Below, in pieces: positions 1-64,000 of a stretch of DNA of 64,000 nucleotides (positions are counted from its first letter, which is position 1; the number at the start of each line of letters is the position of its first letter). A program made the position numbers and the translations under genes. Below the pieces are notes generated by a model. It was not told where the DNA came from, made no database searches, and was given only the letters and a program-made list of their open reading frames with translations. Origin of the DNA: Patescibacteria group bacterium. Its GTDB lineage: Bacteria > Patescibacteriota > Patescibacteriia > CAIXNZ01. Location: positions 102,047 to 166,046 of the forward strand of contig JAQTMG010000002.1 in NCBI GenBank assembly GCA_028714455.1, in the 5' to 3' direction.

Positions 1-1
1 T

Positions 2-445
2 TTTGAAAAAAATATTTATTGCGCAGATTCTGGAAAATACGGAACAACTATATTTTCTGCGAAAAAAATTAATAAAGGTGAAACTGTCTTCATTATTTGC
101 GGTCCAATTATAAAACAGCCATCAATTTATACGGTTCCGATTGATTTTAATTTATATATTGATCCGATTGCGCCTGGTAAATTTCTTAACCATTCCTGCG
201 AACCTAGTTGCGGTATAAAGAATAGGACAGAAATCGTCGCCATGAGAGATCTGGGCAAGGATGAAGAGATAACAATTGATTATGCCATGATTGTTTATAA
301 ATATGATGATCTAAAATTAAAACAGAAAATAGTGTGTAATTGTGGTTCGAAAATATGTAGAGGAAAATTTGGCAGTTTTGAAACTCTGCCAGAAAATTTG
401 CGTGAAAAATATAAAGGTTTTATCTCGGATTATATGATTCAATAA
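2..445 (+). CDS. SET domain methyltransferase-like protein, 5' end outside window
   Basis: Frame 2 is open from the window edge. It contains the NHSCEPSCG SET motif and a C-terminal CNCGSKICRG Cys cluster. Confidence 0.8.
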   Translation, partial: FEKNIYCADSGKYGTTIFSAKKINKGETVFIICGPIIKQPSIYTVPIDFNLYIDPIAPGKFLNHSCEPSCGIKNRTEIVAMRDLGKDEEITIDYAMIVYKYDDLKLKQKIVCNCGSKICRGKFGSFETLPENLREKYKGFISDYMIQ

Positions 446-526
446 ATTATGGATTTTAAAAAAGGCATTTTTCAAGTTCTTTTACAAATGTTTTTAGAAG
501 GAAAGTAAAAAAAGGAGGTCTAGCAA

Positions 527-844
527 ATGGCAACAATACCAATAACAAAGGTGACCAACGAATTTCCGGATTGGGTAAAAGAAGCGCTCATCGGCTTAGA
601 ATTCCCAGTAGTAGAAGTTCCCAATGACCAGCCCTTGCGCGCGCATAATTTTTGGGGACCCCCGATAAATTCACCCCTACTGTCTGAACTATCAGAATCA
701 GTTCATTGCGTGGATGGGGGCGTATTTTTGCAGATTCTGCACGAAAAAAATACGAAAGCCGCTGACTGGCTTGGGACAAAAACCCTTATGGGGTTGGCTC
801 ATTGGGTTGGTATCACCGGGGATAAACTTTTTTTGGTAGATTAA
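527..844 (+). CDS. hypothetical protein (SD-bearing orphan)
   Basis: 105-aa ORF with AAAGGAGG 8 nt upstream of the ATG. A hairpin terminator follows. Confidence 0.55.
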   Translation: MATIPITKVTNEFPDWVKEALIGLEFPVVEVPNDQPLRAHNFWGPPINSPLLSELSESVHCVDGGVFLQILHEKNTKAADWLGTKTLMGLAHWVGITGDKLFLVD

Positions 845-855
845 GCCATTACAAA

Positions 856-890
856 AGGCGAGTTAGAATTCTTTCTACTCGCCTCTTTCT
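856..890 (+). terminator. intrinsic terminator hairpin
   Basis: AGGCGAGT (856-863) pairs with ACTCGCCT (877-884), followed by a T-rich tail. Confidence 0.6.
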
Positions 891-913
891 AAAAGCATTT
901 GTTGATAAATTAT

Positions 914-1831: not shown

Positions 1832-1925
1832 AAAAAATCGGGGATGAACTGGGCAAAAATTCATCCCCGCAGACAAGGAGGAGTGTTTCTCTATTTATTT
1901 TTTATATAGCCCGCTCCAAGAAAAA

Positions 1926-3921: not shown

Positions 3922-3938
3922 ACGAAAAAGGAGGGAAA

Positions 3939-4106
3939 ATGAAAAGGACGCTTGCTAATAGGGCAGCTGCTCTTCGACATACTGGAGATGAAGAGAAGAG
4001 GCTATCCCAAATGATTGAGGAGAATGAATACGGCAAAAGGAGAGAAAAATACCGGGAAGAAATTCAAGCTCGCAGGAGGATAATGGCGAAGCATGGCGCA
4101 AGGTAA
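3939..4106 (+). CDS. hypothetical small charged protein (55 aa, below ORF-track cutoff)
   Basis: ATG lies 4 nt after AAAGGAGGG. Translation is MKRTLANRAAALRHTGDEEKRLSQMIEENEYGKRREKYREEIQARRRIMAKHGAR. Confidence 0.45.
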   Translation: MKRTLANRAAALRHTGDEEKRLSQMIEENEYGKRREKYREEIQARRRIMAKHGAR

Positions 4107-4138
4107 AATAATCCTGACGACAAAAAAGGAGGAAAGAA

Positions 4139-4366
4139 ATGAGAGAAAAAGTAGATCGCAAGGCTAAATTAGCACCCCCAGGTTCAGAACGGGAAAAGTT
4201 TTTTGAGCGCCCTGGCCTGATATCTGTTAATCTGGGACCAGAAGGAATCGACGAGAAGACAGCGAAGAAGTTGAATCAACTCATGAAAGACATCGACGCA
4301 GGAAAAGTAAAGGAGGGTATTCCCGAAAAGGTGCTGGAAAGGGATAAAAGACTCAAGATGGTCTAG
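4139..4366 (+). CDS. hypothetical small protein
   Basis: 75-aa ORF with AAAAGGAGG upstream. A terminator follows immediately. Confidence 0.5.
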   Translation: MREKVDRKAKLAPPGSEREKFFERPGLISVNLGPEGIDEKTAKKLNQLMKDIDAGKVKEGIPEKVLERDKRLKMV

Positions 4367-4373
4367 TCGATCA

Positions 4374-4401
4374 AGAGGAAGCGCAAGCTTCCTCTTTTTT
4401 T
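4374..4401 (+). terminator. intrinsic terminator
   Basis: AGAGGAAGC-GCAA-GCTTCCTCT followed by a T7 run. Confidence 0.8.
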
Positions 4402-4513: not shown

Positions 4514-4560
4514 ATTCTCTAAAATCGTATATTTTGCTAAAATAGAAACAGCGCGTTATT

Positions 4561-4644
4561 AGGTGATTAGTAGAGTGTGATTAGTGACTAATATCCATTC
4601 ACTCTCCACCAAACCCTCCACGCTCCACACTCAACGCTAAACCA
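4561..4644 (+). repeat. strand-asymmetric intergenic repeat, copy R1
   Basis: A C-free arm (4561-4587) is followed by a G-free run (4588-4621). It is about 80 percent similar to R4. Confidence 0.7.
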
Positions 4645-4660
4645 GCGAAAAAATATATTT

Positions 4661-6862: not shown

Positions 6863-6892
6863 AAAAGCCCCGCAGGCACGGGGCTTCATTTT
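6861..6892. terminator. bidirectional terminator between copA and the HD gene
   Basis: AGCCCCG/CGGGGCT stem with an A run before and a T-rich run after. Confidence 0.7.
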
Positions 6893-7483
6893 CTAACAAA
6901 GATCCAATTGGATTGGCAAAAACGCATCAATTATCTTTTTGATTTCGTAATACAGGTATTGGTCAGTTTCCTCGGCAATAGGCAGAATGTAAATTATCGT
7001 CTCCTTTATCTTACGGACCTGCTTCTCTCGGTCGCAAGAGCTTAAAGTCCGCAGATTGTGCAGGCGGTCAACCAGTTTCAGTATCCTGGTTTTATTGTTT
7101 GAGCGGCGGAGCTTTTGGAAATACTTCTGCAACGTTATGCCGTCGCTTAAATCAGTAGCGGATTTTTTAGTCAGAAATTGAACCGCCTTTTTCACCTCCT
7201 TGCCAAAAATGTGCTCAATGTCCCAGAAGTTCAAAATAAAACTGTCTTCGGGTAAATCATGCAGCAGCGCGCTGCAAAGCATTCTGGGGTCGTAGATTTT
7301 CAGCTCGTCAATCAAAATCAGAGCGCAGCTCTTGGGGTGTTCAAAGTACCTTTCGCCGCTTTCACGAGTTTGACCGCGATGGCCGTATTTCGCCAAGACG
7401 TAGGCCAGAATGACCAGATTGAGTTCGCTCGGCAATAACTTATCTTCCAGTTTTTCTATGAATTCTTCTCTGCCAATAGCCAT
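6893..7483 (-). CDS. HD-domain (p)ppGpp-hydrolase-like protein
   Basis: HRGQTRESGERYFEHP...LLHDLPEDS resembles the SpoT/RelA hydrolase HD domain. AAAGGAGG lies upstream. Confidence 0.75.
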   Translation of the reverse strand: MAIGREEFIEKLEDKLLPSELNLVILAYVLAKYGHRGQTRESGERYFEHPKSCALILIDELKIYDPRMLCSALLHDLPEDSFILNFWDIEHIFGKEVKKAVQFLTKKSATDLSDGITLQKYFQKLRRSNNKTRILKLVDRLHNLRTLSSCDREKQVRKIKETIIYILPIAEETDQYLYYEIKKIIDAFLPIQLDLC

Positions 7484-7518
7484 TTTAACCTCCTTTTTAA
7501 AAGAACCGCTGATATTGG

Positions 7519-8583: not shown

Positions 8584-8662
8584 AAAAAATCAAATAAATA
8601 AAAAGGGCTTAGACGCCCTTTTTATGTTTGACCAAAGTGTTGAAAAAATATAAAATTAATCT

Positions 8663-10195
8663 ATGTTTAAGGAAAATAATTACAAAAAATATCTTTATAT
8701 TCTCTCATTTTTTTGCGGCATGACTATCATGGCCGTGGAAATTTCGGCTTCGCGCCTTTTAGCGCCATATTTTGGCACTTCGACTTTTGTCTGGACCAAC
8801 ATCATCGGCGTGATTATGGTGGCTCTGGCCATTGGCTATTTTGTCGGCGGCAAGTTATCCGACAGGCGTCCAGATTTAAACGTTTTGCTCAAAATAATCC
8901 TGGTTTCCTGTATTTTTTTAATGACCATACCCTTTATTACTAGGCCGTTGGTGGAATTTATAACCGGCAGCATCTCAATCTGGCAATCGGCTACGAGTTT
9001 AATCTTTATCGGTTCTCTTCTGACCGTGGTCATCTTGTTTATTTTTCCGATAATCTTACTTGGTATTGTCAGTCCGTTTATAATCAAGCTGCTTTCTCTG
9101 AAAAATGGCAACGTAGGCAATGACGCTGGACTGGTTTTTTCCATCTCAACCGTTGGCAGTATTGCGGGAACTTTTTTGCCAGTGCTGGTTTTTATTCCCT
9201 ATCTCGGCACCAGGAAAACAATTTTAATTTTTTCCTTGTCTTTGCTGGTAATCGCGATTATTGGTTTGTTTCCCAAAAAAATTTCCTTGATTTTTCTTTT
9301 ACTTTTTATTCCTGTCATTGTTTTAAAAATGCCAGCGATCAAATCCGCCAATGCTGTGGCCGAGGGTGAGTCCGTCTATCAATATTATCAGGTGGCTGAC
9401 CAAAATAATTTTAGATATTTAAAAATCAATGAAGGTATGGGCGTTTTTTCCGTGCTTAACAAAAGTTCAGACAGCGTTTTAACTGATTCTTATTTTGATT
9501 ATTATAATATTTTGCCTTACATTGACGGCCAGAGTAAAAAGCAAGATGTCCTTATTTTGGGTTTAGCCGGCGGCACAGTCAGCACCCAGTTGAATCATTT
9601 TTTTGCCAACGACTTTGATCTGCATATTGACGGCGTGGAAATAGACAAAAAGTTAATTGAAACGGCCAAAAAGTATTTTAATTTGGAGAATCCCTCTCTG
9701 ACCATTTACAATTTAGACGGCCGAAATTTTTTAGATTATTACCAAAATAAATATAACGCAGTGGTGATTGATGTTTATTCCAACCAGCTGTATATTTCTT
9801 TCCACCTGACCACCAAAGAATTTTTTGATTTGGTAAAAAATCATCTGAAGCCTCAAGGTATCGTGGCCATGAATGTCAACGCTACAGGTAAAGATTCGGC
9901 GCTTTTAAAAAACATCACCAATACCATGCTTTTGAGTTTTAAAAATGTTTATACGGTCTGGACCAGTAATTACAGCTGGAACTATTTAGTGATCGCCTCT
10001 GATAGCGATTTAGATTTCAAAGATTTGAAAAATATCAAAGTTGATCCGCAGTTAAGATCAATTATTGATAATACCAGACAAAATGTTGAGAGGGTTGAAT
10101 ACGACAACAAATTTGGTTTCCTGACAGACGATAAAGCGCCAATTGAAAATTTGACTGACTGGATGATAATTGATTATGTATATAAGAATATGTGA
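8663..10195 (+). CDS. fused membrane domain / spermidine synthase-like protein
   Basis: N-terminal multi-TM region plus a C-terminal GLAGGT...DGVEID...VIDVYS aminopropyltransferase-like fold. Confidence 0.8.
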   Translation: MFKENNYKKYLYILSFFCGMTIMAVEISASRLLAPYFGTSTFVWTNIIGVIMVALAIGYFVGGKLSDRRPDLNVLLKIILVSCIFLMTIPFITRPLVEFITGSISIWQSATSLIFIGSLLTVVILFIFPIILLGIVSPFIIKLLSLKNGNVGNDAGLVFSISTVGSIAGTFLPVLVFIPYLGTRKTILIFSLSLLVIAIIGLFPKKISLIFLLLFIPVIVLKMPAIKSANAVAEGESVYQYYQVADQNNFRYLKINEGMGVFSVLNKSSDSVLTDSYFDYYNILPYIDGQSKKQDVLILGLAGGTVSTQLNHFFANDFDLHIDGVEIDKKLIETAKKYFNLENPSLTIYNLDGRNFLDYYQNKYNAVVIDVYSNQLYISFHLTTKEFFDLVKNHLKPQGIVAMNVNATGKDSALLKNITNTMLLSFKNVYTVWTSNYSWNYLVIASDSDLDFKDLKNIKVDPQLRSIIDNTRQNVERVEYDNKFGFLTDDKAPIENLTDWMIIDYVYKNM

Positions 10196-10309
10196 GGAGT
10201 TGAGAGTAAGGAGTGGAGGGCTTAGTGGAGAGTAATTGGATGTTGGTCATTAATTACCCTCAACCAATTACCTAACGCTCAACTCTCCACTCTCCACTAT
10301 TTACCAAAT
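10196..10309 (+). repeat. strand-asymmetric intergenic repeat, copy R2
   Basis: A C-poor arm runs to 10247 and a G-poor arm spans 10248-10309. It contains TTAGTGGAGAGTAATTGG, the reverse complement of an 18-mer in R4. Confidence 0.7.
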
Positions 10310-10365
10310 GGAAGGTTTGCATGGCGGTCTAGTGCGCACGCCTGCCCCGTACCAATATTTATCAA

Positions 10366-10538
10366 GGAAGGATGGCCGAGAGGCTGAAGGCATCCAGCAC
10401 CAACGCGGAGGGATCGCATAGTGGTCTAGTGCGCTTGCTTGGAGAGCAAGTGTGTCGCAAGGCACCGCGAGTTCAAATCTCGCTCCCTCCGCCATGGTGC
10501 TGGATTAATAGCGGGGGATATTAATCTCATTCCTTCCG
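10366..10538 (+). pseudogene. tRNA-Ser-like shell lacking an anticodon loop and a proper T arm
   Basis: The 5' half is GGAAGGA-TG-GCC-GAGAGGCTGAA-GGC-A-TCCAG. The 3' strand TCCTTCC-G pairs with the acceptor. The anticodon stem is extended to a 10-bp helix capped by the inner tRNA. Confidence 0.5.
10407..10494 (+). tRNA. tRNA-Ser(GGA), complete, innermost unit
   Basis: GGAGGGA/TCCCTCC acceptor, loop TTGGAGA, long variable arm, GCGAG-TTCAAAT-CTCGC T arm, G73 and CCA. Confidence 0.85.
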
Positions 10539-12597: not shown

Positions 12598-12891
12598 TTA
12601 TTCGCCGTAGGAACAGGTGTAGGCCGCAAATCGAGTCGCTTCGAAAACGATTTCTTTTCCGGCCGGGATGATGAAGGTTGAAATGGCTTTACATTCTTGG
12701 CCATTTATCTTGATGCACCCGTAGACAACAACGATTCTTTCTTGCCTTTTGGCGATGCCAAATTCGTATCTTCCGGGAGAAACTACGCCGACCGTGTGGT
12801 CGCCGGATTCGCTCGTAAAACCGAGTGATTGAACCCTTCCCTTGAAATACACATTGTGCTTGATCCCTGGATCGGTTTTCTTCCTCGCCAT
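12598..12891 (-). CDS. ppnP: pyrimidine/purine nucleoside phosphorylase PpnP (DUF1255)
   Basis: NVYFKGRVQSLGF...GRYEFG resembles E. coli PpnP/YaiE. AAAGGAGG lies upstream. Confidence 0.75.
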   Translation of the reverse strand: MARKKTDPGIKHNVYFKGRVQSLGFTSESGDHTVGVVSPGRYEFGIAKRQERIVVVYGCIKINGQECKAISTFIIPAGKEIVFEATRFAAYTCSYGE

Positions 12892-12980
12892 TTAATATCA
12901 CCTCCTTTATTTTTTTAAACCTTAGCATATAATAATTCACAAATCAAATCATCCAATTCCTAATTACTAATCACCGGCCT

Positions 12981-14379: not shown

Positions 14380-14614
14380 ATTTTGGTTTCGAACAAGAAA
14401 AGGTATCAAAAGCAAAGATTTAGGTTGGGGTTTTATTCCTGTAAGTTGGGAAGGGATTGTGGCTTATTCTGTTCTACTCGTGTTGGTTATTTTATTTGGA
14501 GCATATTTTGACATTTTACATGCAAACACAGCGCAGGGTTTTTATTTTCTTTTTTCGATAGTTATATTATTTTTTGCCTTTAGTGTTTTGGCTAAAGTCA
14601 AAACGCAAAGATAA
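14372..14614 (+). CDS. small membrane protein
   Basis: 80 aa with ATGAATAA start/stop overlap with the CPBP gene and two predicted TM helices. Confidence 0.5.
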   Translation: MNKFWFRTRKGIKSKDLGWGFIPVSWEGIVAYSVLLVLVILFGAYFDILHANTAQGFYFLFSIVILFFAFSVLAKVKTQR

Positions 14615-15173: not shown

Positions 15174-15298
15174 TTTGCCCTCCTTTTTCCTATTTGTATC
15201 ATTCAAATCCAGGATAGTCAAATAGCATTTGAGTTGATTTTCAAAATTTAAATAATTGTTATATAATAAAACCAGTGCTAAAGATTAAATTTAAACCC

Positions 15299-49788: not shown

Positions 49789-49866
49789 TTTTTGGTTCTT
49801 TTTGGTTACAAAAAGAACGAAGGTTAAATTCTTGCTAAAATTGCTAAAATTCTATACAATTTGAAT

Positions 49867-51835: not shown

Positions 51836-52072
51836 ATGGCTGAAAACGAAAACACTAAGGCCAGCAAAAATTTTATCGAAATGAGGGGTAGGGTTGAAGA
51901 ACTCTTGCCAGCGGGCAGCTTTAAGATAAAATTGGAAAATGGCCAGGAAATTCTGGGTTTTCTTTCCGGCAAGATGAGAATGAACAAGATCAGAATTTTG
52001 CCGGGCGACGAGGTAAGAGTTGAGATGACGCCCTACGATTTATCCAAGGGAAGAGTTGTCTATAGATATTAA
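51836..52072 (+). CDS. infA: translation initiation factor IF-1
   Basis: S1-like fold with [20 protein letters not shown]...[23 protein letters not shown]. Confidence 0.95.
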
Positions 52073-52112
52073 ATAATTAAGGAAAATATTTTTAAAATAT
52101 TTTTTTATTTTT

Positions 52113-52229
52113 ATGAAAGTTAGAGCATCGGTCAGACCAAGATGCAGAGATTGCAAAGTCATCAGACGAAAAAAACGCGTCTGGGTAATTTGCAAAAGTC
52201 ACCCTAAGCACAAACAGCGCCAGGGCTAA
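52113..52229 (+). CDS. rpmJ: 50S ribosomal protein L36 (38 aa, below ORF-track cutoff)
   Basis: [38 protein letters not shown]. Confidence 0.9.
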
Positions 52230-52283
52230 CTTTTTATATTCCAATCCCTAATTTACTAATTACCAATTACTAATAACCAAGAT

Positions 52284-52676
52284 ATGCCAATCCGTATCGC
52301 TGGCGTCACAATTCCACAAGATAAAAGAATAGTTATTGCTTTAACCTATATTTATGGTATTGGCGATTCTTCTGCCGAAAAAATACTTAAAGCTCTTAAA
52401 ATTAACCCGGATACAAAAGCCAAAGACGTCACGGCCGACGAAGAGAGTAGGATTCGTGAGTATCTTAAGGATAATTTTAAATTAGAGGGTGATTTGAGAA
52501 GAGAGGTTTTGACCAACATTAAACGATTAAAAGAAATCAAAAGTTATAGAGGTAACAGACACGAAAGACATTTACCTTCTCGCGGACAAAGAACTAAAAC
52601 AAACTCCAGAACGGTTCGCGGCAACAAAAGAGTTACTCTGGGCAGCGGCAGAAAACCGTCAGCGCAGAAAACATAA
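52284..52676 (+). CDS. rpsM: 30S ribosomal protein S13
   Basis: MPRIAGV-like N-terminus and the conserved S13 sequence. Confidence 0.95.
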
Positions 52677-52685
52677 TTTTCCAAT

Positions 52686-53222
52686 ATGGCAGAAACTACA
52701 AAAAAAGATAAGAAAGAAAAAGAAGTTGTCAAAGAAGTTGCTAAAGAAGAAAAGGTTGAAAAACAGCCCGAGATTAAAATTGAAAAAAAAATCGAAGAGC
52801 CGTCTTTATCGGCAGAACCAAAGGATGAAAAGGAAAAAACCGGCAAGGTTTTCAGAAAAAAGAAAAATATCAGGCAGATAACTCATGGCCGAGCTTATAT
52901 TCAGGCGACATATAATAACACAATCATTACTTTGACCGATTTAAACGGCAATGTTTTATCATGGTCAAGCGCCGGCCAAAACGGCTTCAAGGGCCCAAAA
53001 AAATCGACTCCTTATGCCGCTTCGGTGATTGTTAAAGACGCCGTTGATAAAGCCAGCGTTTATGGATTAAAAAATGTTAACGCTTTTGTTAAGGGTGTCG
53101 GTTCTGGTCGCGAAGCAGCTGTCAGAGCTTTGAATACTTATGGCATAAATGTAATTTCCATTAAAGATATTACGCCGATTCCGCATAACGGCTGCCGCGC
53201 TAGAAAACCGCGCCGAATCTAA
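52686..53222 (+). CDS. rpsK: 30S ribosomal protein S11 with about 50-aa K/E-rich N-terminal extension
   Basis: The core starts near RKKKNIRQITHGRAYIQATYNNTIITLTD, preceded by a low-complexity KE-rich segment. Confidence 0.9.
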   Translation: MAETTKKDKKEKEVVKEVAKEEKVEKQPEIKIEKKIEEPSLSAEPKDEKEKTGKVFRKKKNIRQITHGRAYIQATYNNTIITLTDLNGNVLSWSSAGQNGFKGPKKSTPYAASVIVKDAVDKASVYGLKNVNAFVKGVGSGREAAVRALNTYGINVISIKDITPIPHNGCRARKPRRI

Positions 53223-53244
53223 TTCAAATTCTGAATCAAATAAA

Positions 53245-53871
53245 ATGGCAAGAAATCTAAATCCAAAATGTAAGCAATGCCGAAGAGAGGGTGTCAAGCT
53301 TTTTCTCAAAGGTGATCGTTGTTCAACCCCCAAATGCGCCATGGTTAAAAGAAATTTTCCACCGGGCGTTCATGGCGGCAAGGGTTATCCGAGAAGCACT
53401 TCTTATGGTTTAGAATTGCGAGAAAAACAAAAAGCCAAGAGGATCTACAGAATTTTAGAAGCCCAATTCAGCAAATATTTCGTGCAGGCCACGAAGTCAA
53501 AAGGCAATACCGAGGAGGTGATGTTCCAGCTATTAGAAATGCGCTTTGATAATGTCGTCTACCGAGCCGGCTTGGCTAAGTCAAGGGATCTGGCCAGACA
53601 GCTGATTTCTCATAAACATTTTACAATCAATGGCAAAAGGGTAAATATCCCTTCTTATAAGGTTAAAGTTGGCGATGTTATCGGCATTAAAGAAAATAGC
53701 AAAAGTTCCAAAGTTTTTGACAGTATCAAGGAACAGATCAAAAAAATAGAAGGTGTCTCCTGGCTTTCGATTGACCCGGAAAAGCTTGAGATCAAGGTGG
53801 TCGACAAACCAAAACTCGCGGAGCTGAAGGAATTTAATCCCAAACTAATAGTCGAATTTTATTCAAAATAA
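53245..53871 (+). CDS. rpsD: 30S ribosomal protein S4
   Basis: N-terminal CKQCRREG zinc-like motif and an S4 domain. Confidence 0.95.
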   Translation: MARNLNPKCKQCRREGVKLFLKGDRCSTPKCAMVKRNFPPGVHGGKGYPRSTSYGLELREKQKAKRIYRILEAQFSKYFVQATKSKGNTEEVMFQLLEMRFDNVVYRAGLAKSRDLARQLISHKHFTINGKRVNIPSYKVKVGDVIGIKENSKSSKVFDSIKEQIKKIEGVSWLSIDPEKLEIKVVDKPKLAELKEFNPKLIVEFYSK

Positions 53872-53901
53872 AAATAAATTTTAAGATTAAATTATTTTTT
53901 T

Positions 53902-54684
53902 ATGGAAAATCTCTTCTTACCGACCAAAATTGAGTTAAAAAAGGGCGAAGGAGCCAACGAGGGCATTTTGGTTATTGAGCCGCTATTTCATGGTTATGGC
54001 ACAACCATCGGCAATGCTTTGAGAAGAGTTTTATTGTCGTCACTGCCAGGCGCCGCCGTCACTTCATTTAAAATCAAAGGGGCTACGCACGAATTTTCAG
54101 CCGTTAAGGGAATATACGAGGATGTTCTTGAAATTGTATTAAACTTAAAACAGCTTCGCTTAAAGATGTACGTTGATGAACCGGTTGTCTTAAAACTTGT
54201 TAAAAAGGGCGAAGGTGAAGTAACCGGAGCCGATATTGAAAAAAATTCTAGCGTGGAAATTTTTAATCCAGAAATGAAAATCGCGACCATTACGGAAAAG
54301 GGCGCGGAATTAAACATGGAAATTACCGTTGAAAAAGGACTTGGCTTTGAACCAACCGAAAACAGAGATAAGACAAAACTGCCGGTCGGAGCCATCGCCA
54401 TTGATGCCATTTATACGCCGCTAAAGGACATCGGCTTTAAAGTCGAAGATACTCGCGTGGGCCAAATCACCAACTTTGACAAATTGACCATGGATATCAA
54501 GACCGACGGCACTATCACCCCGTCATACGCGATCAACTATGCCGCCAAACTGCTAATCGATCATTTTACTTTATTAACTAAGGAAGAAAATATTCCAGTT
54601 GAGACAGCCGTCAAAGAATCGGCCGAAGAAAAACCGGCCAAAAAGGCTAAGAAAGCGCCCAAGGCCAAAAAGGCTAAGAAATAA
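53902..54684 (+). CDS. rpoA: RNA polymerase alpha subunit, N-terminal domain only plus K/A-rich tail
   Basis: The alpha-NTD is conserved (GTTIGNALRRVLLSS). The protein ends at 260 aa with EEKPAKKAKKAPKAKKAKK. Confidence 0.9.
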   Translation: MENLFLPTKIELKKGEGANEGILVIEPLFHGYGTTIGNALRRVLLSSLPGAAVTSFKIKGATHEFSAVKGIYEDVLEIVLNLKQLRLKMYVDEPVVLKLVKKGEGEVTGADIEKNSSVEIFNPEMKIATITEKGAELNMEITVEKGLGFEPTENRDKTKLPVGAIAIDAIYTPLKDIGFKVEDTRVGQITNFDKLTMDIKTDGTITPSYAINYAAKLLIDHFTLLTKEENIPVETAVKESAEEKPAKKAKKAPKAKKAKK

Positions 54685-54686
54685 AT

Positions 54687-55037
54687 ATGAGACACAGGAA
54701 TAAGACAAAAATTTTGGATCGCAAAAAAGCAGCCAGAAAAGCGCTCATGAGAGGACTGGCGACGAATTTTATTTTACACGAAAAAATCAAAACGACTATG
54801 GCTAAGGCTAAAGCTCTGCGGCCATACGTTGAAAAACTTATTACCAAAGGCCGAAAGAACGATTTGAATACCAGAAGACAGCTCCTAAAGGTTTTATACA
54901 AAGAAAACGCAGTTAAAAAGGTTCTGGAAGTCCTTAGCCCGCGTTATAAAGAAAGAAATGGCGGCTATACCAGGATTATCAAGCTTGGCAGTAGGCAAGG
55001 GGATTCAGCCAAAATGGCAATTATTGAATTTGTTTAA
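54687..55037 (+). CDS. rplQ: 50S ribosomal protein L17
   Basis: MRHRNK..., typical L17. Confidence 0.95.
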   Translation: MRHRNKTKILDRKKAARKALMRGLATNFILHEKIKTTMAKAKALRPYVEKLITKGRKNDLNTRRQLLKVLYKENAVKKVLEVLSPRYKERNGGYTRIIKLGSRQGDSAKMAIIEFV

Positions 55038-55038
55038 T

Positions 55039-55413
55039 ATGAAAACTACTAATTTGAACGTAAAAACTGAAAGAAAAATTCAGACCATAGATGCGACCAA
55101 CCAGTCCGTAGGCAGATTAGCCTCGCAGATTGCCAGATTACTAATTGGCAAACATAAGGTTGGCTATACGGCGCACATTGATGATGGTGATTTTGTCGTA
55201 GTCACTAACGCTGGCAAACTACTTTTTACGGGCAATAAACTGCAACAAAAAACATACAAACATCACTCTGGCTATCCAGGCGGACTTAAGGAAACTAAAA
55301 TGAAAAAAGTCTACGGTGAAAATCCTGGTCAGGTAATAAAAAAAGCCGTGGATAATATGTTACCTAAAAACAGGCACCGCAAAGAGTTGTTAAAAAGATT
55401 GACAATCAAATAA
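55039..55413 (+). CDS. rplM: 50S ribosomal protein L13
   Basis: The start at MKTTNL is chosen just after the rplQ stop. GRLASQIARLL is a conserved L13 motif. Confidence 0.9.
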   Translation: MKTTNLNVKTERKIQTIDATNQSVGRLASQIARLLIGKHKVGYTAHIDDGDFVVVTNAGKLLFTGNKLQQKTYKHHSGYPGGLKETKMKKVYGENPGQVIKKAVDNMLPKNRHRKELLKRLTIK

Positions 55414-55415
55414 TT

Positions 55416-55847
55416 ATGGAAAAAACAGCAACTAAAAATAAAGAGAACACCAAAGAATCTGGAAAATACTTTTTCGCCATCGGCCGAAGAAAATGCTCTA
55501 TCGCCAGAGTTAAATTGTTTTTGAAAGGCAAGGGTGAAATAATGATTAACGGCAAAAAATCAACTGATTATTTACCCGATTACGTGCTTCAAGAAATAAT
55601 TCACGCTCCGCTCAAGCTTGCTAATTTAGAGAAAGCTGATATTATCGTCTCTACTAATGGTGGCGGCAAGACTGGCCAGGCAGAAGCGATAAGATTGGGC
55701 ATTTCCCGCGCCCTGGTTTTACTTGATAAAGAACTTCGCAAAACCCTGAAGGTCGCTGGCTTTTTAAAACGCGATCCCCGAATCAAAGAAAGAAAGAAGC
55801 CGGGCCTTAAGAGAGCAAGAAGAGCACCCCAATGGCAAAAAAGGTAG
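55416..55847 (+). CDS. rpsI: 30S ribosomal protein S9
   Basis: C-terminal KKPGLKRARRAPQWQKR, typical S9. Confidence 0.95.
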   Translation: MEKTATKNKENTKESGKYFFAIGRRKCSIARVKLFLKGKGEIMINGKKSTDYLPDYVLQEIIHAPLKLANLEKADIIVSTNGGGKTGQAEAIRLGISRALVLLDKELRKTLKVAGFLKRDPRIKERKKPGLKRARRAPQWQKR

Positions 55848-59694: not shown

Positions 59695-60099
59695 TCATTC
59701 CGAGCGTAGCGCGAGGAATCCATAACATCGATTAATATGAAACAATATTGCGTTTACATAATGACTAACAAAAGTGACTCCGTGGATTATACCGGCATAA
59801 CGAATAATTTATTTCGAAGAGTATACGAGCATAAAACCCATTTTAATGAGAAGAGTTTTACTTCAAAATATAATATCAATAAATTAGTTTATTTTGAGGA
59901 ATATAATAATCCCGATCAAGCCATATACAGAGAAAAGCAAATAAAGGGCTTGAGTAGAGAAAAAAAATTTAATTTAATAAAAACTATCAATCCTGATTTT
60001 AATGATTTGGCCAGAGATTGGTATAAAGATAGCCAGGCCGAGCGCAAAGAACAACCGACTCAACCTAAATCATAGATTCCACGCTGCGCTCTGAATGAC
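59694..60099 (+). mobile_element. GIY-YIG gene nested between inverted hairpin arms
   Basis: The left arm GTCATTCCGAGCGTAGCGCGAGGAATCC (59694-59721) and right arm GATTCCACGCTGCGCTCTGAATGAC (60075-60099) are mutually complementary. They touch the stop codons of the flanking and cargo genes. Confidence 0.65.
59737..60075 (+). CDS. GIY-YIG nuclease family protein
   Basis: CVYIMTN...YTGITNNLFRRVYEH...E..K motifs of the GIY-YIG fold. Confidence 0.85.
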   Translation: MKQYCVYIMTNKSDSVDYTGITNNLFRRVYEHKTHFNEKSFTSKYNINKLVYFEEYNNPDQAIYREKQIKGLSREKKFNLIKTINPDFNDLARDWYKDSQAERKEQPTQPKS

Positions 60100-60125
60100 A
60101 GTTGTGGCTCGGCTTTTGCAAAAAT

Positions 60126-60995
60126 ATGGATTTATCAATAATAATTGTAAATTGGAACGTCAAAGACTTGCTACGAAAATGTCTGCAATCAATCTATAAA
60201 AAAACTCAAGGCCTTGAATTTGAAGTTTTTGTAGTTGATAACGCCTCAAAAGATAATTCAATTCAAATGGTTTTAAAAGAATTTCCTCAAGCAACTTTAA
60301 TCGCTTCAAATGTAAATCTGGGTTTCGCCAGAGCCAATAATCTAGCGCTCGAACAGGCCAGAGGAAAATATATTTTATTCATGAATCCAGATATGGAGCT
60401 GGTTGAAAATTCTTTTCCTAAATTAATTGAACTAATGGATAAGGATCCAAAAATCGCTTTGTCCACTTGCCAATTAATTTATCCTGACAGCTCCAGGCAA
60501 AATAATGTTAAAAATAACCCTGGATTTTGCGACCAATTTTTAATCCTCTTAAAACTCCATCATCTTTTTCAACCACGATGCTTAAAGAGATATTTGGCCA
60601 AGGATTTTGATTATTCCAAAGAACAAGAAGTTCGGCAAATAATGGGCGCTTTTATTTTTGCCAATGGCGAGATAATAAAAAAACTTGGCGGCTGGGATAC
60701 TGAATATTTTCTTTGGTGGGAAGATTTGGATTTATGCAAAAGAGTACAGGATACCGGTTATAAAATTGTTTACACGCCAAGCACAAAAGTTATACATTAT
60801 GAAGCCAAGGCCTTTGAGCAGCAACCTAGTTTGGAAAAACAAAAAAGATTTAATAGGGGAATGAGAATATATTTTAAAAAACATTTTGGTTTATTGGTTT
60901 ATTGGTTTATTGGTTTATTGGGGTTTATAAGCTTGGGTCTAGCCTGGTTGAGTCAGATCTTTAAAATCAAGCCAAAAACGCAATCAAAGTTATAG
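60126..60995 (+). CDS. glycosyltransferase family 2
   Basis: LSIIIVNWN, VDNASKD and a DxD-like region. ATG at 60126. Confidence 0.85.
   Translation: MDLSIIIVNWNVKDLLRKCLQSIYKKTQGLEFEVFVVDNASKDNSIQMVLKEFPQATLIASNVNLGFARANNLALEQARGKYILFMNPDMELVENSFPKLIELMDKDPKIALSTCQLIYPDSSRQNNVKNNPGFCDQFLILLKLHHLFQPRCLKRYLAKDFDYSKEQEVRQIMGAFIFANGEIIKKLGGWDTEYFLWWEDLDLCKRVQDTGYKIVYTPSTKVIHYEAKAFEQQPSLEKQKRFNRGMRIYFKKHFGLLVYWFIGLLGFISLGLAWLSQIFKIKPKTQSKL
60888..60919 (+). repeat. 4 x 8-nt perfect tandem repeat (GGTTTATT) inside the GT2 gene
   Basis: Read directly. A fifth degenerate copy follows after 2 nt. Confidence 0.9.
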
Positions 60996-61130: not shown

Positions 61131-61409
61131 CTAACGATAACAAAGGATGAGCACGATAATTGATGCGCTGATACAGGCGCTTAAACCAAGGCAGGCCTGG
61201 AGCATGCGAATTCTCTTAAAATAACCTTCCAGCGCCATACACACCTGAACAACCAGGTAGATTGTGAACATGCTGATTGAAAGCCCCTGGACGTTGTGGG
61301 TCTTGATGATTTGATAAAGCTGAGGCAACATTGCCGTAACGTTGATAAAACCAATAACCCAAATAATAACTGACCAATGGATCTTCTCGGCGAATTCATC
61401 GCGTGTCAT
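61131..61409 (-). CDS. PQ-loop / SemiSWEET-like small membrane protein
   Basis: 92 aa, three TM helices and LPQLYQIIKTHNVQGLS. AAGGAGGG lies upstream of the ATG at 61409. Confidence 0.6.
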   Translation of the reverse strand: MTRDEFAEKIHWSVIIWVIGFINVTAMLPQLYQIIKTHNVQGLSISMFTIYLVVQVCMALEGYFKRIRMLQACLGLSACISASIIVLILCYR

Positions 61410-61501
61410 CTTATCCCTCCTTATTTTATTGTTAGGTACTTTAATTAAATATAATAGCAAAATTTTATATAATTGTCAAATGTTAACAAAATAATAAAAG
61501 C

Positions 61502-62962
61502 ATGTCAGATATAACAAATCTCTTAAAAAATAATAAAATCCAAATATTTTTGGCTATTTTAATCATTGAAATACTTTCTTTAATTAGTTTTAAAATTACC
61601 TGGCTTTCAGGAATATTTTTTGTCTTAATCTGTCTAGGCGTTTTAATTTTAACCTGGCGCAAATTAGAAAATGGCGTCTTGATTGCCTTGGCTGAATTGA
61701 TAATTGGCTCACAAGGATATTTATTTTATCTGATGTTACCCGGATTTAAGGTCTCAATTCGTCTGGGAATTTTTCTGATTGTATTTTTTGTCTGGTTATT
61801 TAAATATTTCAACTTCAGGAATTTCCTCAATTTATTGAGGAAGGATAGGCTAGTTCAAAATTTCATTTTACTTTTAGTTTTTATTGCTTTTGGCGCAATC
61901 AATGGTTTAATTCACAAAAATGGCGCTAGCAATGTTTTTTTTGATCTAAACGGTTATTTATATTTCGGACTCTTTTTTGTCTTTCTGGATGCTTTCAAGG
62001 ATAAAGAATTACCCAATAAATTTATTAATGTTTTACTTGCCGCTTTAACCTATGTTTCTCTGGAAATATTTTTTACTCTTTATATTTTCTCACATTCAAT
62101 TCCATATTTGCCTGATTTATTTTACCACTGGATTCGCGATACCAGGGTAGGGGAGATTACTTATGCCGGCGCTAATTTTTTCCGCGTTTTTTTCCAGTCG
62201 CAAATCTGGACGCTGGAAAGTATATTTATTATTCTATGCATTCTGTTATTAAATAAAAAGTCCAAGTGGCTATATATTCTCTTAATCTTTCTTCAAACTT
62301 CCATTCTAATCAGTTTTGCCCGCAGTTTCTGGCTTGGCGGCGCCGTGGCTATGGCGTTTTTATTCGGTTATTTAATTTACACTCGAATAAAAGAATGGCA
62401 GAAATTATTAAAAAATATTGGCTTAATGATTAGCGCTGCTATTCTAAGTGTTGTCTTGATTTTCGCGATTGCCAATTTTCCATTACCCAAACCCACGGCT
62501 TATTTTACGGCTGATATGTTAGTTGGCAGATTTACTCTGTTTAGCGATGCCGCTGCTTCTAGCCGCTGGCAAGAGCTGCCAGTGATTTTGGAAAAAATAA
62601 AAACCAGCCCCATTTTTGGCGCTGGCTTTGGTTCCACTATTACTTATAAAACCGAGGATCCGCGAATCAAAAATACCGATAATCCAGAAGGCTGGTATAC
62701 CACCTACACTTTTGAATGGGGTTTTTTAGATACGATTACGGAAATTGGTATTATTGGTTTATTGGTTTATTTAGTTTTTATCGGCCAGATCTTTTATCTG
62801 GGGCTTAAGGGCAGGGGAGAGAATTGGCTAAAAATTGGTTTGTTACTCGGTTTGATTGCTTTAGTAATAACTAATATCTCCAGTCCATATTTGAATCATC
62901 CACTGGGTATTGGCTATTTGCTTCTCTGTGCTGGAATATTTGAATCAAGATTGTCCGATTAA
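61502..62962 (+). CDS. O-antigen ligase/polymerase-like membrane protein
   Basis: About 12 TM helices with a Wzy_C-like loop region. It lies in the glycan cluster. Confidence 0.6.
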   Translation: MSDITNLLKNNKIQIFLAILIIEILSLISFKITWLSGIFFVLICLGVLILTWRKLENGVLIALAELIIGSQGYLFYLMLPGFKVSIRLGIFLIVFFVWLFKYFNFRNFLNLLRKDRLVQNFILLLVFIAFGAINGLIHKNGASNVFFDLNGYLYFGLFFVFLDAFKDKELPNKFINVLLAALTYVSLEIFFTLYIFSHSIPYLPDLFYHWIRDTRVGEITYAGANFFRVFFQSQIWTLESIFIILCILLLNKKSKWLYILLIFLQTSILISFARSFWLGGAVAMAFLFGYLIYTRIKEWQKLLKNIGLMISAAILSVVLIFAIANFPLPKPTAYFTADMLVGRFTLFSDAAASSRWQELPVILEKIKTSPIFGAGFGSTITYKTEDPRIKNTDNPEGWYTTYTFEWGFLDTITEIGIIGLLVYLVFIGQIFYLGLKGRGENWLKIGLLLGLIALVITNISSPYLNHPLGIGYLLLCAGIFESRLSD

Positions 62963-63099
62963 TTGCCAACAAGTTGGCAAAATCCACAACGATTATCCCA
63001 ATTTATTGGGATTTATTATTTTGTAAATTTGTAAATATGAGCTAACCTGGTTGACAAAGAAATAAAAATTTGCTTAAATTTAGGAAAAGGAGGGAAAAA

Positions 63100-63444
63100 A
63101 TGACCAAACCAGTTGGTAAAGAAGTGCTAAGCCAGTGCGGAATCACGGGAAAGAAATGGAAAAAACTGCCAAATGGCCTGCGCAAACACCGCCGCTGGCA
63201 AAAGGCCCAGGAACGCAAACTGTTTCTCAAGCGCGAGCAGGAATGCAAGCGGCGCGCAGACGAACTGGCCAAGCTGCCGAATTATGAGGACTTTCCGAAA
63301 TCCGTACGACGCGACTACCACGGCGATTGTTGCCCCCACTGCTTCACGTCAAGAAGATTCGCGAGCGCTCAAGTCAAGATACAAACAAAGCAGGGCACAA
63401 AGACCCTCCACAAATGCGAGAGGTGCGGAAAATTATATCGGTAA
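63100..63444 (+). CDS. hypothetical basic zinc-ribbon protein (SD-bearing orphan)
   Basis: ATG lies 5 nt after AAAGGAGGG. It has a CPHC...CERCG pair. Confidence 0.5.
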   Translation: MTKPVGKEVLSQCGITGKKWKKLPNGLRKHRRWQKAQERKLFLKREQECKRRADELAKLPNYEDFPKSVRRDYHGDCCPHCFTSRRFASAQVKIQTKQGTKTLHKCERCGKLYR

Positions 63445-63496
63445 AGAAAAAACCGCTCCAACAACTGGGGCGGTTTTAATTTTTCAGGACTCATCT

Positions 63497-63766
63497 TTAT
63501 TCGCCGTAATAAATATCACAAGCGAATCCTTTGGGATTTTGCTCGTGCCGGCAGAACGTAAACGCGACCTTGGCTGGCGGCATTTCAGCCGACAAAGATT
63601 CGGGATGGGTAACTGACATTAAAATAAAGAAAGCAATAAGAATATCAATACCCAGGAGCAACACATCTGAAAAAGCGTCCAAATACTTCCGATCCGCAAT
63701 ATCCCCAAATATAGCCTGTACGCCAAACGCAATCATACCGATCAAAAAACCAGCAAAAAATTCCAT
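63497..63766 (-). CDS. hypothetical small membrane protein (SD-bearing)
   Basis: 89 aa with AAAGGAGGG upstream and two or three TM helices. Confidence 0.5.
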   Translation of the reverse strand: MEFFAGFLIGMIAFGVQAIFGDIADRKYLDAFSDVLLLGIDILIAFFILMSVTHPESLSAEMPPAKVAFTFCRHEQNPKGFACDIYYGE

Positions 63767-63827
63767 TTTCCCTCCTTTTTTGTTTAAGAACTTTTATGTT
63801 TTATTTTAACATTTTTGGAAAATCATG

Positions 63828-64000
63828 TCAAGATCGTACCAATAATTTTCGCGTAACCATTTAAAAATTCCTTGGCAGACATTTTATTTTTGCCTTCAAG
63901 TTGCAATTCAATTAATTCCAGCTGACCACGGCCGCATTGAACTTTCAAAACATTATTAACCTCATAAACCTCGCCAACAACCCTGCTAACCTGCTCGAGC
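63828..64000 (-). CDS. fmt: methionyl-tRNA formyltransferase, C-terminal end (5' part outside window)
   Basis: The reverse-strand translation ...LELIELQLEGKNKMSAKEFLNGYAKIIGTIL resembles the Fmt C-terminus. Confidence 0.65.

Follow-up and report, generated by a model that had tools for sequence, protein, structure and literature searches.

A discrete class of accessory genes with maximal Shine-Dalgarno sites among SD-less housekeeping genes of a Patescibacteria bacterium

Why would one bacterial genome place strong Shine-Dalgarno (SD) sites before some of its genes and none before the others? The question is raised by a 64-kb stretch of a metagenome-assembled genome (MAG) from a Patescibacteria bacterium (assembly GCA_028714455.1, contig JAQTMG010000002.1, positions 102,047 to 166,046; 40% GC, three tRNAs), hereafter the window. 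An original prediction, made by eye from the letters, listed 18 genes in the window with AAGGAGG-type sites and suggested that they may be a laterally acquired or separately regulated pool, possibly from a higher-GC, SD-using partner, within a genome whose own genes initiate differently. Here we find that these genes form a discrete class that differs from its neighbors in composition, position and content and whose SD sites are conserved in relatives, and we propose that the genome probably maintains two translation-initiation architectures. Judging by its DnaG, the source organism is a Patescibacteria bacterium near Candidatus Falkowbacteria. The closest DnaG relatives are Candidatus Falkowbacteria MAGs (70-71% identity) and further relatives are Patescibacteria throughout; several of these records are labelled Gammaproteobacteria or Planctomycetota and are evidently mislabelled MAGs.

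A discrete class of genes with maximal SD sites

We curated 73 protein-coding genes, 18 with an SD and 55 without (non-SD genes); rpmJ and one borderline case came to light afterwards, and some non-SD statistics below rest on a 54-gene set and others on the final 55. Each start was scored by the duplex energy of positions -20 to -1 with ACCUCCUUU, the canonical 16S rRNA tail, which may not be the organism's own. The 18 SD genes pair at -11.1 to -13.1 kcal/mol and the 55 non-SD genes at -5.0 kcal/mol or weaker, mostly near 0, and among the 73 curated genes the gap between the two groups is empty. The genes in the range of -11 to -13 kcal/mol are exactly the 18 originally listed, all with an AAGGAGG-type site. 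Spacing from the GGAGG core to the start is 4-11 nucleotides (nt), and 17 starts are ATG (46296 is TTG). AAGGAGG occurs 25 times in the window versus 7.1 +/- 2.9 times in dinucleotide shuffles. As 16 of these are SD sites and the other nine match chance expectation, the excess equals the SD class and supports a discrete set of SD genes. In GGAGG complementarity, spacing, above-chance occurrence and conservation in orthologs, the 18 sites behave as canonical SD sites. The base following GGAGG is G in nine of them and T in five; since the canonical tail favors U here (GGAGGU), the organism's own 16S may carry a variant base 5' of CCUCC.

The 18 genes, named by their start position, are as follows (lengths in amino acids, aa).

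512-844 (+): SD gene 1; AAAAAAAGGAGGT, 8 nt, ATG 527; duplex energy -12.5 kcal/mol; 105-aa orphan, no Pfam hit
3928-4106 (+): SD gene 2; AAAAAGGAGGG, ATG 3939; duplex energy -12.3 kcal/mol; 55-aa orphan, 17 nt past the gatA stop
4126-4366 (+): SD gene 3; AAAAAAGGAGGA, ATG 4139; 75-aa orphan; terminator 4373-4396
6893-7495 (-): SD gene 4; AAAAAGGAGGT, ATG 7483; HD_4, small (p)ppGpp-hydrolase-like protein, 196 aa; bidirectional terminator 6864-6887
12598-12907 (-): SD gene 5; TAAAGGAGGTGAT, ATG 12891; PpnP family, 97 aa; terminator 12590-12564
14676-15185 (-): SD gene 6; AAAAAGGAGGG, ATG 15173; 165-aa Cys-rich orphan; terminator 14670-14639
17079-17466 (-): SD gene 7; CAAAGGAGGGG, ATG 17453; 124-aa orphan; promoter 17545-17517
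17616-18122 (-): SD gene 8; GAAGGGAGGTAG, ATG 18104; 162-aa orphan
25000-25473 (-): SD gene 9; AAAAAGGAGGG, ATG 25461; 153-aa orphan, convergent on rpoD
33231-34604 (+): SD gene 10; TTAAGGAGGA, ATG 33243; thrC, threonine synthase-type pyridoxal-phosphate enzyme with N-terminal zinc ribbon
36730-37732 (+): SD gene 11; CCAGGAGGCAAAGGAGGT (double), ATG 36752; 326-aa orphan
41954-42253 (-): SD gene 12; CCAAGGAGGGG, ATG 42241; 95-aa orphan
45087-45323 (+): SD gene 13; AAAAAAGGAGGC, ATG 45099; 74-aa membrane orphan; terminator 45342-45366
46282-46874 (+): SD gene 14; CAGAGGAGGAT, TTG 46296; 192-aa multi-pass membrane protein; promoter 46223-46251
47014-47296 (+): SD gene 15; AAAAAGGAGGG, ATG 47027; 89-aa orphan
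61131-61422 (-): SD gene 16; ATAAGGAGGG, ATG 61409; PQ-loop (SemiSWEET-like), 92 aa; promoter 61479-61451; terminator 61124-61101
63087-63444 (+): SD gene 17; AAAAGGAGGG, ATG 63100; 114-aa Cys-rich orphan; terminator 63449-63477
63497-63777 (-): SD gene 18; AAAAAAGGAGGG, ATG 63766; 89-aa membrane orphan; promoter 63831-63803

The recognizable core genes had been described as lacking such sites, and with their identities confirmed by Pfam none has one. They include MurB, GatC, GatA, CopA, TypA, an RlmN-type radical SAM protein, DnaG, RpoD, MnmA, AlaS, IF1, S13, S11, S4, RpoA, L17, L13 and S9, together with the glycosyltransferases, the flippase, and the MFS and ABC transporters. A tRNA U5-methyltransferase (ATG 38166) and rpmJ, the latter absent from the original list, likewise start without an SD. 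One block of such genes is the ribosomal-protein cluster.

51836-55847 (+): infA-rpmJ-rpsM-rpsK-rpsD-rpoA-rplQ-rplM-rpsI, nine cistrons, none with an SD, U at -1 in eight of nine

The sole candidate that falls between the classes is an open reading frame (ORF) missed by the original list, which is otherwise borne out in full. This ORF, 14372-14614 (+), encodes an 80-aa membrane protein, overlaps the end of 13480-14379 by 8 nt and has an SD-like site, AAAAGGGAGA, at -8.6 kcal/mol. Just beyond the window, fmt and def have no SD and a 58-aa orphan has one. Directly upstream of window position 1 (L165 996-2127) we also note a cyclodipeptide synthase gene and a SET-domain gene, neither with an SD.

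The gene calls agree with those of an independent Logan assembly (SRR22315509). The SD-class ORFs are 55-453 aa long, and NCBI or Logan calls concur with them; the choice of start differs between NCBI and Logan for 15173, 46296 (149 aa in the NCBI call, 192 aa in the Logan call) and 63100. The SD-led ORFs score positive for coding, are conserved at the protein level in a relative, and come with promoters and terminators.

Composition, position and content of the SD class

The two classes differ in far more than their start sites. Gene GC is 0.459 in the SD class versus 0.397 in non-SD genes (Mann-Whitney p = 1.3e-7), and GC at third codon positions (GC3) is 0.516 versus 0.412 (p = 2e-6). Codons shift accordingly to G/C-ending forms (AAG 0.42 vs 0.23, TAC 0.46 vs 0.26, TTA 0.09 vs 0.28), Cys is enriched four-fold in SD-class proteins, and the dinucleotide signature distance reaches 67, where the null is 34 +/- 10. 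The SD class thus deviates in GC, in GC3, in codon use and in dinucleotides, the kinds of property for which a calculation had been proposed. The direction of the contrast first seen by eye is upheld by the per-gene calculation, at about 6 GC points, and its size is not: the hand counts of 53-60% versus 22-27% exaggerate it. We considered several causes of the GC difference. Length and orphan status are rejected as confounders, as the contrast persists below 200 aa (p = 5.5e-5) and within Pfam-less genes (p = 0.015); strand is rejected because plus-strand SD genes are equally GC-rich; and expression-linked codon bias is rejected as the cause of the GC3 shift because ribosomal-protein genes have ordinary GC3 (0.33-0.46).

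SD genes are shorter (median 110 aa vs 260 aa; p = 0.002) and, as had been claimed, frequently lie opposite to their neighbors, with 9/18 on the minus strand versus 5/55 non-SD genes (p = 5e-4). They are indeed dominated by orphans: Pfam matches 4/18 (HD_4, Ppnp, PALP, PQ-loop) versus 47/54 non-SD genes (p = 7e-7). An all-versus-all BLASTP found no similarity among SD-class proteins, which excludes a paralogous family or a repeat-borne SD, and their products, which comprise enzymes, membrane proteins, zinc-ribbon proteins and orphans, lack a coherent function. Most SD genes are preceded by a promoter of the form TTGACA-N16-18-(TG)nTAnnAT that leads to a 13-60 nt leader, and these promoters (TTGACA-N17-TGnTAnnAT) are of the same type as those on core genes. 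At least 14 of the 18 have a hairpin and T-run within about 60 nt past the stop, in line with the claim that each has its own terminator. The further claim that the genes are single and unlinked fails for 3939 and 4139, which follow gatA in the same orientation at 17 and 32 nt. Here gatC and gatA have no SD and the two orphans behind them have perfect ones, so the split is made per cistron and not per transcript.

Conservation of the SD class in relatives

We compared this one 64-kb window with about 1.3 Mb from relatives, for which we mostly used home-made heuristic gene calls. Labels such as L001, L002 and L024 denote related Patescibacteria loci (L165 lies just upstream of window position 1); L002 and L164 are overlapping pieces of one Falkowbacteria contig (33-35% GC) that is syntenic with the window across typA...rpoD and RNHCP...LOG. 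In this relative, all four alignable orthologs of SD genes keep a strong SD, namely 17453 (43% identity, SD kept as ACAAGGAGGA), 18104 (28%, AAAAAGGAGGG), 25461 (63%, AAAAGGAGGT) and thrC, and 8/8 core orthologs are SD-less. SD-class proteins are 28-67% identical to those of the relative versus 51-93% for neighboring core proteins. The slots of 42241 and 45099 are occupied in L164 by SD-led ORFs of a similar kind (109 aa, and a 78-aa membrane ORF) that barely align, which suggests that SD-class proteins evolve fast. We did not find 12891, 15173 or 36752 in the syntenic relative, and no ortholog of 25461 follows rpoD in the relative L001.

The compositional offset is also shared. In the gene calls that come with the L164 record, the six SD genes have a GC of 0.396 versus 0.335 (p = 0.014) and a GC3 of 0.374 versus 0.282 (p = 0.008). 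SD-class GC is thus 0.46 on a background of 0.40 in the window and 0.40 on 0.335 in the relative, an offset that is roughly constant across genome GC. The SD fraction is 18/73 (25%) in the window and about 22% in the closest relative. For pooled tests over 65 related loci we used a cut-off of -11 kcal/mol, because false positives at -8.5 kcal/mol amount to about 8% per gene. At this cut-off, 48 of about 990 genes have an SD; they are shorter and richer in GC (+0.031, p = 0.003) and GC3 (+0.043, p = 0.002), and the pattern of a weak majority and a strong minority recurs over the 65 loci.

Individual families can be followed further. The thrC SD is present in seven of 10 Patescibacteria lineages, weak in one and missing in two, and thrC GC exceeds that of its surroundings in all five loci measured (the window, L164, L168, L169 and L170); a gene-intrinsic GC component therefore exists in thrC. 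In L169 and L170, the SD-led genes besides thrC are again Pfam-less. In five distant loci (L024, L028, L031, L059 and L078), a conserved small membrane protein of about 100-127 aa with the motif SNLMAALSY...HAKQG is led by a strong SD that hardly varies, GAAAGGAGGTGG, suggesting that some families keep their SD phylum-wide. We considered whether the recurrent SD-led gene near dnaG in distant loci is bS21 and rejected this, as the gene encodes a small conserved membrane protein and not rpsU; no rpsU adjoining dnaG was seen in this lineage.

How the SD-less genes start

The starts of non-SD genes carry a signal of their own, which agrees with the original view that the genome's own genes initiate differently. 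U stands at -1 in 41/55 non-SD genes versus 1/18 SD genes, and a pyrimidine in 46/55; the Y(-1)R(+1) pattern extends to tightly coupled cistrons, including those 1-2 nt past the previous stop (TAAT-ATG). Elsewhere in Patescibacteria (loci L001-L078), about 880 non-SD genes show U(-1) in 69% of cases, and U(-1) looks like a lineage-wide start-context signal. Such a U next to AUG would suit the pyrimidine(-1)/purine(+1) rule of transcription initiation and would also allow extended pairing with A37 of the initiator tRNA. In addition, A occupies -11 in 40/55 non-SD genes (74% in a 54-gene frequency table) and makes up 43-59% at the tabulated positions across -8 to -2, with U remaining dominant at -1, and G is depleted in the last eight upstream bases (2-9%).

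Some of these starts are also marked by a -10 box. TAnnnT lies at -12 to -7 in 22% of non-SD genes versus 0-13% at the other 24 offsets, a peak at a 6-nt spacer that is sharp both in the window and in related loci. A -10 box that ends 6 nt before the ATG would place transcription initiation on the A of the ATG, that is, in leaderless geometry. The geometry is clear at 8663, 27085, 30221(-), 38166, 39756, 47367 and 49867, four of which are given here.

8628-8665 (+): leaderless-type core start; TTGACC-17-TAAAAT, 6 nt, ATG 8663
38131-38168 (+): leaderless-type core start; TTGACC-17-TAAAAT, 6 nt, ATG 38166 (tRNA U5-methyltransferase)
47349-47369 (+): leaderless-type core start; TGCTAAAAT, 6 nt, ATG 47367 (mnmA)
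49832-49869 (+): leaderless-type core start; TTGCTA-17-TACAAT, 6 nt, ATG 49867 (alaS)

Other SD-less core genes have predicted leaders (typA about 95 nt, infA about 117 nt, 7618 about 32 nt), and others start 1-30 nt past the previous stop, for example in the ribosomal-protein cluster. The first 45 coding nt have a GC of 0.32 in non-SD genes versus 0.42 in SD genes, and the minimum free energy of folding of positions -20 to +40 is -3.8 versus -7.6 kcal/mol (p = 7e-5). The weak fold of non-SD start regions fits the principle that SD-less genes need unstructured start regions (PMC3121790).

Origin of the SD class and flanking repeats

The proposed comparison with best-hit taxonomy, run for ThrC and the HD protein, speaks against an outside donor: among homologs with a source name, nearly all of those of ThrC and all of those of the HD protein are from Patescibacteria. 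The ThrC relatives outside the Patescibacteria are about 38-40% identical and lie on contigs of 52-68% GC, several with GGAGG-like upstream motifs. The orphans have no outside relatives. None of the 14 has a match in PHROGs or NCBIfam, and when the SD-class proteins were concatenated and run by tblastn against 50,697 phage records, only the HD domain was matched; a phage origin is rejected on these grounds. All ten orphans that we looked up are singletons at 90% identity, confined to this MAG; 527 is a hypothetical protein in NCBI, again from this MAG only, and 36752 has only four remote homologs among 1.84 billion representatives searched.

We find direct repeats bracketing three to four SD genes and none of 54 non-SD genes tested.

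33127-33162 (+): upstream hairpin copy bracketing thrC; 36-nt terminator hairpin, 91% identical to its partner, z = 13.7
34612-34648 (+): downstream hairpin copy bracketing thrC; differs from the thrC terminator of L164
36613-36656 (+): upstream hairpin copy bracketing 36752; 82% identical to its partner, z = 12.8
37735-37780 (+): downstream hairpin copy bracketing 36752; 44-46 nt pair with compensatory stem changes
46929-46958 (+): upstream repeat GGCGGGTTTTTTCTTnnACG..AAAATTTT bracketing 47027; about 30 nt, z = 9.1
47326-47352 (+): downstream repeat copy bracketing 47027; directly before the leaderless-type mnmA promoter
442-462 (+): weaker repeat ATAAATTATGGATTTTAAAAA upstream of 527; about 21 nt, duplicates the murB -10/start region 905-927, z = 3.6

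By their sequence, the repeats look like old insertion or relocation footprints. The thrC promoter and SD are common to the window and L164, and the neighbors and terminator differ. Repeat-bracketed genes exist in other loci as well, for example L031 and L067. No mobility gene was seen adjoining an SD gene in the window. An integrated element does occur in L164 (3197-9420), between rpoD with the 25461 ortholog and thrC. It encodes GIY-YIG, serine-recombinase zinc-ribbon, DUF5659 and Imm_superinfect proteins and is flanked by a 17-nt duplicated tRNA 5' end, and its genes are AT-rich (0.28-0.37) and SD-less.

Two proposed initiation architectures and the alternatives

Based on these data, we propose that a single genome here uses two discrete translation-initiation architectures, with an SD class that is heritable and accessory, and we consider this reading probable. 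About three quarters of the genes, all housekeeping genes included, would start without an SD. Part of these are probably leaderless, with an extended -10 ending 6 nt before the ATG and transcription beginning on the A; by this geometry, the transcription start would coincide with the start codon. The others would be leadered or operon-internal, with starts that are AU-rich, G-depleted and unstructured and have U at -1. The remaining quarter would be SD-dependent and would consist mostly of lineage-specific, fast-evolving small accessory genes plus the patchily distributed ThrC, PpnP, HD hydrolase and SemiSWEET. The typical SD unit would comprise a native sigma-70 promoter, a 13-60 nt leader, a maximal SD (AAAGGAGG, 4-9 nt), the ORF and a terminator, placed between core operons and often antisense to them. 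Several such units were probably inserted at their present sites, duplicating local sequence, and membership in the class would be a heritable property of the gene. Because their start regions are GC-richer and more structured, SD genes may depend on strong SD/anti-SD pairing; which of SD use and GC content drives the other is here a matter of inference.

Several observations weigh against this proposal. The excess of about 6 points in GC and GC3 spans whole genes and is not explained by accessibility of the start region; ancient foreign origin with selected composition, recombination-associated GC bias and selection for mRNA stability are possible accounts of it. A well-placed -10 box is found in only about a fifth of non-SD genes, making "leaderless" a description of a minority, and for the rest the mechanism of initiation is suggested by analogy. 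The thrC of L168 is GC-richer than its neighbors yet has no SD, and the HD homologs of two distant Patescibacteria lineages have none either, indicating that class membership is not fixed over long distances. Within the window, 37821-38000 (-) encodes a 59-aa CxxC...CxxC zinc-ribbon protein; the gene has a GC of 0.49 and no SD, and a strong promoter of its own (38123-38095) gives it a leader of about 90 nt. It is missing from the Logan calls for this stretch, and L164 has a 59-aa gene in the matching position (13970-14149). The window gene runs counter to the rule that a small, GC-rich, minus-strand gene has an SD. Around SD genes in other loci, flanking repeats are not significantly enriched. 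The 16S rRNA 3' end is absent from the window and from all 170 fetched loci, and half of the Parcubacteria were reported to have no detectable CCUCCU motif (PMC9297842). It is because the complementarity is conserved that we take the anti-SD, a 16S 3' end such as CCUCCUUU, to be probably intact and used here.

The explanation closest to the original prediction is recent horizontal acquisition, in which the genes arrived with their SDs from a higher-GC, SD-using donor, such as a symbiont's host, and have not yet ameliorated. It would account for the atypical GC, GC3, codon use, amino-acid content and dinucleotide signature, for single-gene units between core operons and often on the opposite strand, for the duplications at three to four SD genes, for the lack of 25461 in L001, and for the high-GC contigs and GGAGG-like motifs of the ThrC relatives outside the Patescibacteria. 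We nevertheless regard it as quite improbable. A relative at about 70% DnaG identity has kept SD, position and promoter, the source-named ThrC (nearly all) and HD (all) homologs are Patescibacteria, the orphans have almost no relatives anywhere, no donor is detectable, and the promoters are of the native extended -10 type. Diverse donors would be expected to bring SDs of mixed strength and these are uniformly maximal, and the one actual mobile element, in L164, is AT-rich and SD-less. Moreover, SD-class GC moves in parallel with genome GC in two lineages, and a constant offset on two backgrounds is unlike unameliorated foreign DNA. What survives of the lateral-pool idea is therefore a distinct, atypical and accessory pool, as seen in composition, Pfam content and the few repeat-bracketed genes; a recent import from a higher-GC, SD-using partner does not. 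A related possibility is that promoter-SD-ORF-terminator modules move as single-gene cassettes within or between Patescibacteria, targeting or duplicating terminator hairpins. The 27-46 nt direct repeats at thrC, 36752 and 47027 (z = 9-14; weaker at 527), their absence from non-SD genes, the conservation of the thrC gene and promoter with L164 in the face of different neighbors and terminator, and the repeat-bracketed genes of L031 and L067 are what such movement would leave. We think this unlikely as a general account, since no recombinase, transposase or conserved attC-like motif adjoins the genes, 14 of the 18 have no detectable flanking repeats, SD genes outside the window show no enrichment, several SD genes keep their position in the relative, and the repeats have diverged with compensatory changes, so that the events are old.

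A different kind of explanation is a translational regulon, in which the 16S tail is sequestered or limiting as in Bacteroidia, extended SDs compete for it, and the class is switched jointly by ribosome composition, for example through bS21. The all-or-none, maximal SDs of 7-9 nt with no intermediate class and their retention by selection in orthologs fit such a scheme, and there is a precedent in Flavobacterium, with an extended SD on rpsU and translation that depends on bS21 (PMC9976891, PMC13000453); bS21 is variably present in Parcubacteria (PMC9297842). The regulon also strikes us as doubtful, at about the level of the cassettes, given that the class is functionally incoherent, that Bacteroidia have essentially one strong-SD gene and not 25% of their genes, and that the SD status of the HD family varies among lineages. 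Finally, an annotation artefact, with misplaced core starts or SD-led ORFs that are not genes, draws on the uncertain starts of 15173, 46296 and 63100 and is scarcely credible. In the automated gene set, even the best candidate start of each core ORF is SD-less (none stronger than about -8.5 kcal/mol and none between -9 and -11), core N-termini align with relatives from residue 1, independent gene calls agree, and the SD-led ORFs bear the coding scores, conservation, promoters and terminators of real genes.

Comparison with known systems and significance

The nearest parallel to a genome of mostly SD-less genes is the "SD-blind" translation of Bacteroidia, studied in Flavobacterium johnsoniae, where rpsU has an extended SD (PMC7797042, PMC9976891, PMC13000453). 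As in Bacteroidia, most genes here are SD-less although a complement of the canonical SD type can evidently be recognized, the initiation context is A/U-rich, and the SDs that are present are extended and conserved. However, the strong SD of Bacteroidia is found on essentially one gene, rpsU, where it serves autoregulation, and the near absence of SDs that characterizes them does not hold here, where 18/73 genes, accessory or orphan, have a maximal SD. The context signals differ as well, being upstream adenines in Bacteroidia and U(-1) and A(-11) here. In Bacteroidia, bS21, bS18 and bS6 sequester the anti-SD. None of rpsU, rpsR, rpsF and 16S is within the window.

Mixed start models are also known. 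In group C of GeneMarkS-2, which is reported to be frequent in Actinobacteria and Deinococcus-Thermus, leaderless first genes carry a Pribnow box some 10 nt ahead of the start and other genes have an SD, and group X combines weak signals with some SD genes (PMC6028130); a word match of that text found no mention of "Parcubacteria" or "candidate" phyla. Like group C, this genome has dual start models, with the -10 placement seen in a minority of non-SD genes. Unlike group C, in which leadered and operon-internal genes use an SD, the ribosomal-protein cluster, dnaG-rpoD, gatCA, typA and infA have none, and the SD goes with the class of a gene (accessory or orphan, GC-richer), not with its place in the operon. 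Unstructured starts of SD-less genes were described by Scharff et al. 2011 for cyanobacteria, plastids and other bacteria (PMC3121790), and here too non-SD starts have low GC and little structure and SD genes tolerate more. That work describes a continuum in SD-using genomes; here there is an all-or-none split, which goes together with strand, gene age and the composition of the whole gene.

The SD class resembles the atypical, horizontally acquired genes of genomic islets (PMC6028130) in being deviant, accessory, often orphan and scattered, with some insertion footprints. It differs from them in being GC-richer and not AT-richer, in its conserved SDs, native promoters and tracking of host GC, and in having no detectable donor. 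Of the marks of an islet, it shows the deviating composition and does not have its closest relatives outside the lineage. Integron cassettes consist of an ORF with a hairpin-forming attC and are moved by an integrase. Three SD genes are, like them, single ORFs between similar imperfect hairpins, a likeness in which only the repeats were compared. These hairpins are gene-pair-specific intrinsic terminators with T-runs, the genes have their own promoters and form no array, and the window contains no integron integrase or attC consensus.

We found no paper that describes an SD-class split for Patescibacteria; what comes nearest in print is the report of missing CCUCCU motifs in half of the Parcubacteria (PMC9297842). 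On the best reading, genomes with mixed initiation are known and a split of SD use by gene class in Patescibacteria appears to be new. The all-or-none split, U(-1) and the leaderless-type promoters imply that gene finders for the candidate phyla radiation (CPR) need dual start models, and the presence of an SD could be a cheap marker for the accessory, young gene fraction. The split also points to those CPR orphan small proteins that are most likely to be robustly and separately expressed. In addition, it offers a natural system with SD-dependent and SD-independent initiation at comparable gene numbers in one cell, and it is relevant to the loss of SDs in some lineages and to the question whether a whole gene class can be gated through the composition of ribosomes. 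By analogy with Bacteroidia one may speculate further, and we give this little credence, that across Patescibacteria strong SDs mark a conserved, separately translated compartment of small, fast-evolving, lineage-specific proteins and patchy accessory enzymes, next to core genes in an SD-independent U(-1)/leaderless mode, and that anti-SD availability (bS21, 16S tail) is a global switch for this compartment. If true, a circuit that in Bacteroidia involves bS21 and a single gene would here cover a quarter of a genome, and the switched accessory proteome might be the host-interaction proteome.

Other elements in the window

Two ORF-free stretches are of interest as possible RNA elements. The first, 15830-16205 (+), is a structured RNA candidate of about 375 nt (minimum free energy -156.5 kcal/mol, z = -8.1 versus shuffles; terminator 16184-16203) in a 516-nt gap between 15754 and 16271, and within it two GGAGG motifs precede ATGs at which no ORF of 20 aa or longer begins. 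The second, 26020-26445 (-), is also GC-rich; 26496-26654 lies upstream of it and marR downstream. After opening with AAAGGAGGTGTTAATG and a 10-codon ORF (MYKNLNFITA), it has a predicted fold of -135.8 kcal/mol (z = -3.6) and a terminator at its end; it could be a leader-peptide element or a noncoding RNA. Rfam at permissive thresholds gave sub-threshold chance matches only for both gaps. Near murB, a strong terminator-like hairpin (1839-1869 (-), 12 pairs and a T-run) lies right after the gene and an AAGGAGG stands at 1875 (+); the 252-nt gap before gatC contains no convincing ORF.

Several sequences are repeated. An intergenic element of about 85 nt is present in three copies (80-84% identical) that share a long imperfect hairpin with a few compensatory changes: 4559-4645 (+) after 4139, 34669-34755 (+) after thrC, and 10197-10276 (inverted) before tRNA-Ser, so that two of the three adjoin SD-class genes. 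Positions 10310-10344 copy the 5' half of tRNA-Ser(GGA) (10407-10441) over 35 nt at 77% identity, 97 nt upstream of it; neither ARAGORN nor Rfam calls a tRNA there, and the copy could be a decayed tRNA or the trace of an old duplication at an attachment site. A 33-nt repeat, ATnGATTCCACGCTnCGCTCTGAATGAC (88%), occurs at 2412-2444 upstream of gatA and at 60072-60104, where it follows a GIY-YIG gene and precedes the GT2 glycosyltransferase gene 60126.

Two core proteins are unusually built. RpoA (53902-54684 (+), 260 aa) has the N-terminal and insert domains, no match to the alpha C-terminal domain and a Lys/Ala-rich tail, and AlaS (49867-51681 (+), 604 aa) has a short C-terminus. Lastly, TTGGTTTA units form a short tandem run at 60864-60934 in the 3' part of the GT2 gene, and a related copy lies at 62724-62778 in a Wzy-like gene.

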